A stretch of 41,108 bases of DNA from a virus (lineage: Duplodnaviria > Caudoviricetes). Of the stretch, positions 6,769 to 19,436 are shown one piece after another. Each line of letters begins with the position of its first letter. Position 1 is the stretch's first letter. Made by a program: the position numbers and the translations under genes. The notes under the pieces were generated by a model. It saw only the letters and a program-made list of their open reading frames with translations. It searched no databases and was not told the DNA's origin. Where the stretch lies: the IMG/VR virus record IMGVR_UViG_3300037461_000586, positions 1 to 41,108 of that record; one strand, written 5' to 3'.

Positions 6769-7029
6769 ATGAAGCGCCTCGTGCGAGCGTGTGTCGGGTT
6801 CGTCCTGTTGCTGGCGATCTATGCACCAGCCTGGGGAGCTGACGGTTGCTGCGTCTGTGGCGACGGTCGATGTCTCAACGATGTTGCCGGCATCAAGCAG
6901 TGCATCTCCCGGTGCGGCCCTTCGGAGACCATAGCCTACAACGAGGCGTCTACTTGCGGAGACAGATGCTTGCGGCTCGCCAACCAGGTTAGACGGGAGA
7001 GGTTGGCCGAGAAGGGAGACAAGCGATGA
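6769..7029 (+). CDS. small secreted 8-Cys protein
   Basis: GGAGGAGG SD; signal peptide ending AWG-A; mature CCxC-x4-C-x9-C-x3-C-x13-C-x3-C. Confidence 0.8.
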
Positions 7030-8000
7030 AGCGGTTGTTCTGGCCTTTCGTGCTCATTGCTTGGCTCACCGTGATCCTGTTCGCATGGTCCGGTTCGGCT
7101 CATGCAGCGGGTTGTTGTTGCTGTTCTGGCGCTGATTGCAGTCCGAACCCGCAATGCACCGACGACGTGGCAACCGCAACGGCGTGCATCGCTGTGTGCG
7201 AGGGGGAGGGCGAAGACTGCGAAGTGACAGCCTTCAACAGCGGTCTCACCTGCGTTTCGGGATGCGGGGGAAGCTATGCGACTCCCACGAGCACCCCGAC
7301 AAGTACGCCAACGGACACTCCGACTTCCACGCCAACGGACACGCCGACCGAAACGCCAACCATCACCGACACTCCCACCGAAACTCCGACCGAAACCCCG
7401 ACTGACACCCCGACCGAGACGCCTACATACACTCCGACCGACACGCCAACCGACACCCCGACCATAACGGAGACGCCGACCGAGACTCCGACTGACACCC
7501 CCACCGACACGCCGACGCAGACCCCAACGGCTACCTTTACCCGGACGCCGACCCACACTTTCACCCATACGCCAACGGTGACGAACACGCCGATTCACTC
7601 GAACACGCCTACCCTGACGCCTACGCCGGCCCGTCTGGTGGGGATGCTCATGTACCGCGAGGTATGCGCAACCCCGACGTGCATCAGCACGCGAACCTAC
7701 CAGCACCAAGAGGCCGATCGTGCTCGTTTTGGTCAAGGTGGCGGGGTGAAAACCGTCCAGGTCAACGTGGAGCGGTCGGACCCCAACGACACCATCAGCA
7801 TCCAGGCGGAGTGCCAGGGTGCTCCCGGTACGTTCAGTCCGTGGGTCGTCATGGGAACTGCCTTGACAGACACCGGCAAGATCGAAGAAGACGCCTGGTG
7901 TGAAAACGTCAGGCTCAATGTGACGGCTGAGAGTTGTGTCGATCCGAACAGTTGTCCAGCCGTTTCCGGTTGGGTCTCAGTCGATCCGCCCGTTGACTGA
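7026..8000 (+). CDS. secreted Cys-rich protein with Thr-Pro mucin-like linker and C-terminal beta domain
   Basis: Signal peptide ending AHA-A; N-terminal Cys domain paralogous to 6769-7029; TPT repeats; coupled to the portal ATG (TGATG). Confidence 0.85.
7281..7627 (+). repeat. Thr-Pro (TPTx) coding repeat
   Basis: [15 protein letters not shown]... with diversified synonymous codons. Confidence 0.9.
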
Positions 8001-15725: not shown

Positions 15726-18700
15726 ATGAAACGCGCAGCACTGATTCTGCTTTGGCTCCTCGGCGCGTGCGTAGCCGTGGCCGCAGAGCCGCCGATTGAC
15801 GACGGCACGGTGCTCACAGACCCGAACGAGTACGATCTCCCCGCTGACTACACCGAAGACCTCAGCGCACGCACCGAGTCGAGCGCGACGTGGGTGAGCG
15901 GTGCCAGCAAGCGGACCATCGCCAGCGCGGGCCGGATGCACCACAAGATCGGTGGTGGGGCGTGGAAGAAGGTCCGCGCCCGGTGGCGTGTCGATGGTGA
16001 CGCGCTGGTCGCTGACGAGCTGCCGTACACGGCGAGGATCGAGACGCGCAGTAGCAAGACGTGGCTGGATGTTACGATTGGTGCCAATACCTACTCGACA
16101 CGTCTACCAGGCAAGCCGACGATCAGCGAAAACGTGGCGAGCTTTGAACTCAACACCGTGCCGTGTACATATGCCGTCGCCGCCACTGGGCTGAAGCTCT
16201 CATGCACCGTCAAGCGCAGCATCGGCTCGCGCACATGGTCGTTTGTCTACGATGGTCCTGCACTCAGCACGGGCACGGGGAATGCAATCAACCTCGGTGG
16301 AGGATGGGTGATTCCACGCGCTTACGCCATTGGTGCTAACGGAAAGCGATACAATGCCGGAGTGTGGAGCACCACGGCGAACTCGCTGTCGTTTGCGTGG
16401 GACGATAGCGAGCTGCCCGCCGAGGCGTACCCATATCGACTCGACCCGACGTATTACGCTACGACGGCGGACGGGTATGCGTACTCAGAAAATGCGAGTT
16501 ACGCTACAGCTAGGGCTACGGCAAGCGTGTTTGACAATGGTGGCGAGCTTCTATTTGTAGGACAGACCGTCTCCTTTACATACTCCGTCTATCGCGTGTA
16601 TTTGCCCTTCGACACCTCGGGTGTCGGATCGGACACCGTTACAGACGTTGATTTGTATCTGAAAGGCTACGACGGGTTCGACAATTCCACGCAGGATTTC
16701 GACGTGAAAATCGTCGAGTACAAAGGGTGGGCCACGGCCATTGACAGTGAGGCGGATTGGGACGGCTGCAACATCGACAATCAGGTTGCGGGCAACTGCA
16801 CCGGCAGCATGGCCCCCTATTCGTGTTGCACCGGCAACGGCACGGGGTGCGACGGGACGAAAAGCGTTGTGTGGCGTAACTCGTCGGCCTTTTCGACTGA
16901 CTATCTAGCTCAAACTGGTACGCTGACAAACGGATGGATCAACGGTAGCGGCACGACCTACTATTGCCTACGCTCATCTCGGGACGAGAGCAACACGCCG
17001 CCTGCGCAGTTTAACCCGGAGTACATAGGGCTTATGTCCGCAGACATGGCTGGCACGGGAGACGATCCGTACCTAAGTATTGCGCACTCTGCGGCGGCCA
17101 CGAGTACGCCAACCGTTCCCACCAGCACGCCGACGACGACGCCCACGAGCACGCCGACTGTAACCCATACCCCGACGCTGACTCCCGCGGTGCCGCCTCA
17201 GCCCGTCCAGAACACAGCCACGAGTACTGCCACCCCAACCCACACCCCGACTGCCACCAGCACGGCAACGCCAACCCAGACTCCGACCTTTACGGCAACT
17301 GCGACTCCAACGGCAACTCCTACGATTACGCCCACAGCAACAATCACACCGACACCAAGTCGCACACCCCCAGGTGGCTGCACGCAGGAGAAGAGAGACT
17401 GCACGAGTGCATCGACATCTGGAAGCGGGACCACTTGGTCGAATGGACAGAACATTCTTGCAACGGACGATTCATACGCAACGACTTCCGCATCCGGTGC
17501 CCAGACGAGCCAGTACATTTCCGCTCGTCTGTGCGACTTTGCGCTGGATGAGGGACGGGTGGTCAATCGCGTCACGGGCTACATCGAGAGGAGCGCCTCG
17601 GCGCAGGTCAGCACAGACGCAACGGTCTACTTCGTGTCGGGTGGATCCACGAAGGGAGATAATCTTGCAGATGATGAAACGCTCTGGCCTGCCTCGGATG
17701 GTATTGCATGGTACGATTCGACCGGGCATGCGTGGACGCGAGAGGAAGTAAACGCGCTCGATTTTGGTCTGCGCGTGTCCGTGCAAACGTCAGACAGTGG
17801 GACCAGTAAGATCGACCACATCTCGATTGAGGTAGAGCACTGCGCGGCGACCCCTACCGTCACTCCCACGATCACGGACACCCCAACCGTAACGCAGACG
17901 CCCACCCAGACCCCGACGCAAACTTCCACTTCTACCGCAACTTCGACGCCCACTCAGACCCCGACGAGCACGCCGACGCACACGCCGACCGTTACCCCGA
18001 CGAGTACCGCGACGGCAACGCCGACTCACACTCCGACGACAACCCCGACTGATACCCCAACTTCCACGCCGACGAGCACCCCAACCCACACCCCGACCAA
18101 AACTCCGAGCCAGACCCCGACGAGCACGCCGACGCACACGCCGACCAATACTCACACTGCGACGATGACTCCTGCCGTACTTCCGCAGGGTGTTCCAAAC
18201 ACTGTGACCTCGACCCCCACCGAGACGCCGACGCAGACTCCGACGAATACTCCTACTTCTACGCCAACTCATACGCCTACGGTTACGCCCACCCAGACTC
18301 CCAGCTCGACCCCCACCGAGACGCCGACGCAGACGGCGACCTCGACTCCAACCTCGTCGCCGACCGTTACGATAACGACGACTCCGACCAGCACGGCAAC
18401 GCCAACCCTCACCCCCGCTGTACCGCCTCAACCCGTTCTGAACACCGTCACGAGTACGCCGACGCACACGCCGACGCAGACCCAGACGAGCACAGCCACC
18501 CAGACCTCGACTTCGACGCCCAGTGAGACTCCTACAAGTACTCCTACTGCAACTGCGACTCCGACGATGAGCCCCTACGTGCCGCCGCAGCCAGTCCCAA
18601 ATACCGTAACGGGAACCCCGACTCAGACGCCGACGATCACGGCGACCTTGACCCCAACCCCGACACCGACCGAGACGGCCACGCCAACGCTCACTCCTGC

Positions 18701-19436
18701 GGTGCCGCCACAACCCGTGCCGAATACTCCGACGACAACCCCAACCCAGACTCCAACTTCGACGCCAACGGAGACCCCGAGCTCGACGCCGACAGAGACC
18801 CCGACAGAAACCCCCACGATTACCTCCGGGCCTAGTCATACCCCGACGTGGACTTTGACTCCTGCGGTTCCACCGCAGCCCGTGCCGAATACGCCGACTG
18901 ATACCCCGACCGCTACCGTTACGCACACGCCGACTCAGACCCCTACTTCTACCGTCACCCCGACACCCAGCATGACCCCGGCAGTCCCACCGCAGCCCGT
19001 GCCAAACACCGTAACCCAGACGCCAACTACGACGGCGACCTCGACTCCGACAGCGACCTCGACGCCCACCGTCACTCCTGCGGTGCCGCCTCAAGCGGTG
19101 CCGAACACCACAACCCCGACACCCACCATTACCGCAACGGCTACATCTACCGCGACGATGACCCCGTGGGTTCCAGTGCAACCCGTGCCCAACACCCCGA
19201 CCGAAACTCCGAGCGTAACTCCGAGCGCAACCCCCACAGAAACCCCGACGTATACCCCAACAACTACGCCCACGGAGACAGCGACGAGCACCCCATCGAC
19301 CACGCCGACCGAGACCCCCACGGCAACGCCGACCGAAACCACAACAGCAACATCAACCGCGACCCCCACCCAAACCCTAACGGTAACTCCAACAGCAACG
19401 GCATGGCGACCGAAACCGATGCCATGGATATTCTGA
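15726..19436 (+). CDS. giant secreted mucin-like protein (1236 aa): N-terminal YPYRLDPT and DNRLRE-like domains, a beta domain, very long Thr-Pro tracts
   Basis: GGAG SD; signal peptide [32 protein letters not shown]...VTDVDLYL (DNRLRE-like); about half the protein is TPT repeat. Confidence 0.85.
17098..19400 (+). repeat. Thr-Pro coding repeats (about 17098-17370 and 17848-19400) punctuated by 9 [16 protein letters not shown] motifs
   Basis: Counted by eye in the translation. Confidence 0.9.

Follow-up and report, generated by a model that had tools for sequence, protein, structure and literature searches.

By established knowledge, all components of a tailed-phage virion are made in the reducing cytoplasm. 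Exported phage morons (lambda Lom and Bor, T5 Llp, Cor) are membrane proteins or lipoproteins that are encoded near tail or lysis genes and use host export, and the glycans of glycosylated mycobacteriophage virions are added by phage enzymes. Separately encoded receptor-binding proteins are known from K1-5, K1E and SP6: According to the parts of PMC6872550 drawn on here, the gp37 adaptor of these phages, about 300 amino acids long and equipped with T4 gp10-like domains, binds short N-terminal peptides of cytoplasmic tailspikes, and in K1-5 and SP6 a truncated fibre acts as the adaptor for such separately encoded binders. Excerpts of PMC10769870 describe the MAT proteins of Bdellovibrio as chromosomally encoded cell-surface adhesins of this predator, many of them with an S74 chaperone, and excerpts of PMC5939190 describe the PT linkers of secreted bacterial cellulases as glycosylated Pro-Thr repeats of up to about 70 residues. 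Here we analyzed five leader-bearing, cysteine-rich late genes in IMG/VR record IMGVR_UViG_3300037461_000586, positions 1–41,108 (Duplodnaviria; Caudoviricetes). This whole stretch of 41,108 nucleotides, from whose start all coordinates are counted, is referred to as the window; it is the near-complete genome of an uncultured podovirus (short-tailed phage) of about 40.7 kb. The genes lie within a P22/SU10-like podovirus virion module consisting of terminase, P22-like portal, HK97-type capsid, adaptor, nozzle and a large ejection protein, and the capsid protein has its closest match among GenBank phages at 33% identity. The explanation that we favor, with moderate confidence, is that the five genes encode exported, disulfide-bonded and possibly glycosylated receptor-binding parts which would dock on virions at lysis.

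Leaders and cysteines of five late proteins

The first-pass annotation had claimed that five late genes begin with signal peptides, and this was confirmed for all five open reading frames (ORFs) at the proposed starts (6769, 7026, 13576, 14159 and 15726, named after their first position; Table 1). Each starts with an ATG accompanied by a Shine–Dalgarno-like motif and encodes a tripartite leader, in which a basic N-region and a hydrophobic core precede a cleavage site of AxA/AWG type. The leaders were called by a heuristic detector, which on core proteins of related loci made two calls in 299, both at visibly mis-called starts; the 10-residue Kyte–Doolittle mean of the hydrophobic core is 2.7–3.1 in the five leaders versus at most 1.6 in portal, scaffold, capsid, adaptor and nozzle. 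None of the five genes contains an in-frame start with a Shine–Dalgarno motif near the cleavage site, and later candidates, at codons 57–68, fall within the mature domains. Heuristic and homologue conservation together support Sec/signal peptidase I (SPI) leaders of the n/h/c type with A-x-A cleavage.

The mature parts contain 8 (6769), 17 (7026), 4 (13576), 6 (14159) and 12 (15726) cysteines, which bears out the claim that all five are multi-cysteine proteins. Cysteine makes up 2.2% of their 2101 mature residues versus 0.4% of 6437 residues in 14 leaderless late proteins, a 5.5-fold difference. No transmembrane segment was predicted in any of the mature parts, and Pfam, PHROG and NCBIfam returned no named domain for the five proteins beyond low-complexity matches. 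Thr/Pro-rich tracts of the mucin-like or PT-linker type occur in exported proteins: Of the three long tracts originally proposed, those in 7026 and 15726 stand, and that in 14159 is short (40 residues by a window rule). The genes are co-oriented among the virion genes and abut those of adaptor, portal and nozzle; the overlap of the 7026 stop with the portal ATG, already seen in the annotation, is a TGATG at 7998–8002. Lipoboxes had been assigned to two further genes, 4774 and 15304. In 15304, which is conserved and lies beside holin-like genes, the assignment holds (LAGC), whereas the motif in 4774 is non-canonical and tblastn found no homologue of this gene in L001; for both, a role in lysis or exclusion is the better reading.

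Conservation of leaders and synteny, which had been suggested as a check, was found in the closest relative, G002 (portal 82%): all five genes are kept in place, each with a leader of a different sequence. In all three homologues of 13576 the leader ends directly before the conserved mature start. Leader sequences thus drift freely, while the n/h/c pattern and the position of the cleavage site before a conserved mature start are retained. For a wider view, capsid-profile scans covered at least 240 loci, and leader-bearing ORFs of at least 100 residues were counted within 10 kb 3′ of the capsid gene at loci with at least 5 kb. The eight near loci (six genomes, picked by a capsid identity of at least 46% plus an adaptor match) have 1–4 such ORFs each, with three or more in 5/6 genomes. 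Among the matches listed, 120 other loci, including two of 47% identity that had no adaptor match, yielded 17 leader-bearing ORFs out of 989; 14 of these loci have at least one and two have at least two. After addition of G408, L248 and L245 through adaptor and nozzle scans, and of a second phage contig from G001, leader-bearing genes were present in 8/9 genomes of the capsid clade and absent only from L248, a 12 kb fragment. In G003 and G001, genes combining leader, cysteines and Thr-Pro tract also adjoin the terminase. The feature is real and clade-wide. In all, about 75 capsid relatives reach an identity of 49% or more. As separate observations, the distant capsid relatives L004 (10115–13100) and L038 have three and two leader-bearing ORFs directly after the capsid gene, and in the subclade of L083, L244, L248 and L292 the orientation of terminase and portal is apparently reversed relative to scaffold and capsid, with portal sequence present upstream in antisense.

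Predicted binding domains and a truncated fibre

Structure prediction of the globular domains, as the annotation had recommended, gave lectin-like folds for both domains of 14159. The TNF/C1q-like domain is predicted as a jelly roll (predicted local distance difference test score, pLDDT, 95.5) whose best structural match is PLTL lectin (Z 14.3, root-mean-square deviation, rmsd, 2.4, 122 aligned), followed by Pgp3 (Z 13.3), the CBD of the A-1(L) short fibre (Z 11.1), and BclA and PRD1 P5 (Z about 10); many of its matches in a viral library are uncultured tailed-phage proteins. It occurs in five clade genomes, every time behind a leader and followed by variable fibre-like C-termini, and never without a leader among 10,221 called proteins. 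From the fold alone, this domain may form trimers and bind glycans. Three pairs of TNF-domain and clade capsid proteins (P0130/P0006, P0133/P0034 and P0162/P0014) have longest contigs of matching size (13912, 34052 and 42279), hinting at three more genomes that carry the module. The second, CBM6/35/36-like domain (pLDDT 90.8; Z 11.1, rmsd 2.9, 123 aligned, in a list tied at Z about 11) forms the end of a large family of variable-length proteins. Among the best 150 matches of 14159, 99 pass the leader heuristic and many others look like fragments or late starts; 5/39 scanned proteins of the CBM-like family match tail families, and a few match phage tail-fibre profiles. Tblastn of the 14159 domains and the 15726 N-region against 50,697 phage records found nothing. 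A shared fold shows no function, and it is from the predicted models that we infer glycan binding by these domains.

In 15726, the CBM96-like region (Atlas 0.96; Pfam share 46–59%) belongs to an N-terminal part most of which differs in G002, while the C-terminus is kept; a search for its WRPxxxPWIF pattern matched G002 only. The stalk contains a Gln-centred motif in nine copies at 17181–19214, with 12 copies in L002 at 13423–15840 and a related copy in 14159. Because the exact pattern occurs in 0/301 host-class genomes, a host sorting signal is unsupported by it; both these repeats and the C-terminal end conserved in 15726 are possible docking peptides.

The annotation saw no conventional tail fibre gene. 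This holds only in part: the window does have a leaderless fibre gene (22752), reduced to a stub, and a lectin-like nozzle insert, both of which had been missed. It encodes 135 residues, overlaps the nozzle stop and occupies the fibre slot without a receptor-binding end. Pfam, PHROG and NCBIfam, consulted also with regard to the T7 gp17-type anchor and T4 gp10-like branching domains of the K1-5/SP6 adaptor, returned no match for it; its long homologues, leaderless fibres of 592–1047 residues in the same slot of L083, L248 and L245, match fn3/DUF7359, and it is homologous to their FN3-like repeats (E 2e-12 against the repeats of a 992-residue fibre). Genomes with a short slot gene (106–135 residues; 226 in G001) encode several exported proteins, whereas those with a long one encode 0–1. 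With G002 omitted as a near twin and G408 conservatively counted as 2, the length of the slot gene and the number of leader-bearing ORFs of at least 100 residues are negatively correlated (Spearman rho −0.81, exact p 0.019, n = 7; without L245, rho −0.71, p 0.068). One capsid clade (97/95 support) holds all three states: L248 has a 992-residue fibre and no leader-bearing gene, L083 a 592-residue fibre and one such gene, and G408 a 117-residue stub together with a fibre ending in a CBM-like domain and a G8/β-helix protein, both with leader-like starts. The G408 nozzle has no insert, and no leaderless binder was found in this genome. On its contig L292, at about 15400 on the reverse strand, a nine-T run splits the likely start of the leader-bearing fibre from the frame, which is either an assembly slip or phase variation.

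The nozzle insert, leaderless and about 190 residues long, is present in the window, G002, G003 and G001, is absent from six other nozzles and shares homology with one domain found in the exported stalk proteins. Its presence coincides with Thr-Pro tracts in exported proteins (4/4 versus 0/6); since the four nozzles form one clade (96/95), this match probably reflects one event. The insert could be the actual receptor binder, or else serve the stalks as a glycan dock.

Taken together, we propose that head, tail and the truncated leaderless fibre stub would be built in the cytoplasm, while receptor-binding and decoration proteins would be exported by Sec. In the envelope the latter would likely acquire disulfide bonds and possibly O-glycans on the Thr-Pro stalks, and they would dock onto the particle once lysis mixes the compartments.

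Table 1. Features of the window discussed in the text.
Position	Strand	Feature	Remarks
4774..5016	+	80-residue Cys-rich ORF, hydrophobic N-terminus, non-canonical lipobox	not conserved
5249..6670	+	terminase large subunit	leaderless
6769..7029	+	predicted signal peptide, 8-Cys knot module	module shared with 7026 and the mucin-like stalk protein of G002
7026..8000	+	predicted signal peptide, Cys knot, Thr-Pro tract (residues 81–202), conserved C-terminal domain	C-terminal domain 82% to G002
8000..9859	+	P22-like portal	leaderless
11259..12275	+	N4-gp56-type major capsid protein	leaderless
13576..14145	+	predicted signal peptide, single domain with 3 invariant Cys	leader kept in 3/3 homologues
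14159..15307	+	predicted signal peptide, short Thr-Pro linker, TNF/C1q-like domain (14420–14800), CBM6/35/36-like domain (14798–15304)
15304..15534	+	conserved lipoprotein (LAGC), candidate spanin or exclusion lipoprotein	no Pfam match
15467..15673	+	small hydrophobic ORF, putatively holin-like	no family match
15726..19436, N-terminal part	+	predicted signal peptide (possible lipobox), CBM96-like region (residues 20–455), lectin-like domain (residues ~560–705)
15726..19436, C-terminal part	+	~650-residue Thr-Pro stalk, 9 PxxPxQxxxNT-type motifs, conserved C-terminal WRPxxxPWIF
19438..19692	+	membrane protein
19689..20066	+	M15-type endolysin
20063..20722	+	SU10-type head-tail adaptor	leaderless
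20725..22755	+	tail nozzle with ~190-residue insert (about 20965–21590)	leaderless; insert homologous to domain of exported mucin-like proteins
22752..23159	+	tail-fibre stub, short anchor and one FN3-like repeat	leaderless; candidate docking adaptor
26997..33188		ejection-type protein, 2063 residues, ddrB-ParB and LPD38 domains

Elsewhere in the genome, 40855–41108 matches 154–407 at 80% over 254 nt, the final 88 nt being identical, which reflects either a small gene present in two variants or a circular junction in which strains are mixed. An 85-residue Gly-Tyr-Ser-Asp repeat protein is encoded on a 12-nt tandem array at 3145–3402, a Cas4-like exonuclease at 34319–35137 (−) and an excisionase-like helix-turn-helix protein at 38030; the ORFs scanned included no recognizable integrase. 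A promoter and terminator scan gave signals at chance level, and no RNA holder came up for 13500–19500.

The likely host and competing explanations

A relative in a binned genome points to the host. G001 has two contigs of a clade phage (capsid 51%), and among the matches of its RecA the best with a name are Candidatus Binatia (3/6 organism-naming rows, including the top two). The pattern (TPTx)3 has 77 matches in G001, located in secreted Cys-rich proteins, versus 0 in a control, and is present in 32/61 genomes of the class. The host of the window is thus likely a tract-rich member of the Binatia, with the reservation that binning may err. Because matching tracts occur in the secreted proteins of this likely host, the phage tracts point to host adaptation and export and not to a special virion glycosylation. 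Host Thr-Pro proteins (L263 and L278 of G001) have a hydrophobic C-terminal tail with weak matches to sorting-signal models, and the phage proteins have no such tail. VKOR was found in 5/5 genomes of the likely host class, G001 included, and DsbB in none of the five tested. PMT-like matches are non-specific, occurring in 5/5 class genomes whether tract-rich or not and in E. coli too; scanning of window ORFs revealed no glycosyltransferase. The capsid profile matched 2/401 class genomes. The second match, G171, is a distant prophage whose fibres are leaderless and in which no leader was called; host class alone therefore does not impose export.

The confidence that we place in lysis-time docking of exported binders differs between its parts. 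Cleavage of the leaders and export are very probable, and disulfides in the exported proteins nearly as probable. Incorporation into the virion is rather likely, with indirect support from the inverse relation between stub and export and from Cellulophaga phage phi18:3 (NC_021794.1): Its adjacent gp085–087, annotated as structural by tandem mass spectrometry (MS/MS), have leader-like starts and lie beside lysis genes, and nine other MS/MS-noted proteins of this phage have no such starts. O-glycosylation of the Thr-Pro stalks is an even call. That the proteins dock on the stub, as spikes do on the K1-5/SP6 adaptor, is a tentative analogy, with capsid, adaptor and nozzle insert as alternative sites; a complex prediction of three stubs with three TNF-like domains scored 0.00, which counts neither for nor against docking. 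Equally speculative is an extension to the whole clade, by which a cytoplasmic core with stub would be completed at lysis by exported, disulfide-bonded and host-O-glycosylated appendages, the nozzle insert would bind the glycosylated stalks, and the mucin-like coat would mimic the host surface. With conserved leaders, lectin-like predicted folds and VKOR in 5/5 genomes, the reading of export, disulfides and receptor binding given in the annotation is well supported, its interpretation as a whole in part.

Several points weigh against the docking of these proteins on virions. Their export, glycosylation and virion incorporation are deduced from sequence. The genes are intermixed with lysis genes, and their GC content at third codon positions (0.56–0.74) is below that of capsid, portal and terminase (0.80–0.82), as is often the case in morons. 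A disordered stalk of 650 residues is closer in character to a cell-surface protein than to any fibre known. Through the leaderless lectin-like insert that its nozzle carries in this subclade, the virion could bind the host even if no exported part were attached. The TNF-like domain is present in just 5/9 clade genomes examined, so there is no universal single exported anchor. The inverse relation comes from seven related, partly fragmentary genomes with hand-curated counts, among which L248 is a fragment and L083 combines an exported fibre with a long leaderless one; G004 encodes two leaderless modules after the nozzle. For phi18:3, no homology of gp085–087 to the proteins studied here was detected, and the record note does not state the material analyzed, so that co-purification is possible.

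The strongest competitor is plausible although clearly less probable: The exported proteins would never join the virion and would instead act in receptor masking, exclusion, adhesion or as decoys on or from the infected or lysogenic cell, with the nozzle insert as the real receptor-binding domain. Their architecture of leader, Cys modules and TPT tracts mirrors that of secreted proteins of the likely host. Moreover, because of its possible lipobox (LGAC), 15726 may be a lipoprotein, although its G002 counterpart looks SPI-type; its conserved C-terminus is aromatic, and it shares one lectin-like domain with the nozzle, as expected of an adsorption competitor. The Bdellovibrio MAT proteins described in the excerpts of PMC10769870 likewise are exported, phage-fibre-like cell adhesins with a conserved β domain of about 130 residues after the leader. 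Against a role on the cell, however, stand the mature parts devoid of transmembrane segments, the position of the genes next to adaptor, portal and nozzle genes, and the CBM-like tip, which a search of 401 host-class genomes, run with a positive control, did not find. In G408, moreover, the fibre- and spike-like genes found all have leader-like starts, the fibre is a stub and the nozzle insert is missing. We consequently place two-compartment assembly ahead of the host-surface or decoy function. That the leaders serve as uncleaved hydrophobic anchors or assembly peptides, or that export is incidental and a cytoplasmic fraction assembles normally, is improbable: the leader calls do rest on a heuristic, but its false calls are rare, pattern and cleavage position outlast sequence change, and cysteines are enriched in the mature parts. 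Least probable of all is maturation at, or budding through, the envelope with uptake of membrane or periplasmic parts before release: lipoproteins and leader-bearing proteins in the virion operon speak for it, and against it stand an ordinary endolysin, holin-like genes, P22-like portal, nozzle and ejection proteins, and the finding that 0/5 proteins have a membrane anchor.

Comparison with known systems

Like exported morons, the five genes belong to a phage, have tail or lysis genes as neighbours and would rely on export by the host; the difference is that morons have no fibre architecture. Glycan-bearing particles would be shared with the mycobacteriophages, whose glycans are added by phage enzymes, whereas the window ORFs scanned showed no glycosyltransferase. 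The gp085–087 proteins of phi18:3 come from a tailed phage that is in culture, and all three bear leaders and are noted as structural; they have 0–3 cysteines and no Thr-Pro tracts, and their host belongs to the Bacteroidota. We found no published remark on their leaders and, in the open-access literature, to which the search was confined with subscription papers outside its scope, no account of tailed virions with exported parts; the excerpts of PMC12386605, PMC10792529 and bioRxiv 10.64898/2026.09.15.751708 (the last on filamentous-type viruses) contain none. If receptor-binding parts do mature in the envelope and join the particle at lysis, phages gain disulfide-stabilized, glycosylated binders that can be swapped with modules of host secreted proteins, and annotation pipelines would mis-file such genes as morons or host cargo. 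The clade provides a natural comparison between long leaderless fibres and stubs with exported proteins among close relatives, and the cultured phi18:3 makes the general idea testable at once.

The stalks resemble the PT linkers in the excerpted PMC5939190 as Pro-Thr repeats of modular, secreted proteins; the latter are linkers in enzymes and do not exceed about 70 residues, whereas the phage tracts reach about 650 residues and are interspersed with Gln motifs. The likeness to MAT proteins, as far as the excerpts of PMC10769870 describe them, is one of architecture alone (signal peptide, conserved β-rich domain of about 130 residues, variable phage-like trimeric fibre parts): MAT genes are chromosomal and their products are displayed on the cell surface, whereas the genes studied here lie in a phage virion operon. 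Closest in logic are K1-5, K1E and SP6 as portrayed in the cited parts of PMC6872550, in which a fibre gene is likewise cut down to a short anchor without receptor-binding end and the binders are encoded separately. The spikes of K1-5 and SP6 are cytoplasmic and present free N-terminal docking peptides; in the window, by contrast, the anchor is a 135-residue stub with an FN3-like repeat, and its putative partners start leader-like and combine leaders with cysteines and Thr-Pro stalks.

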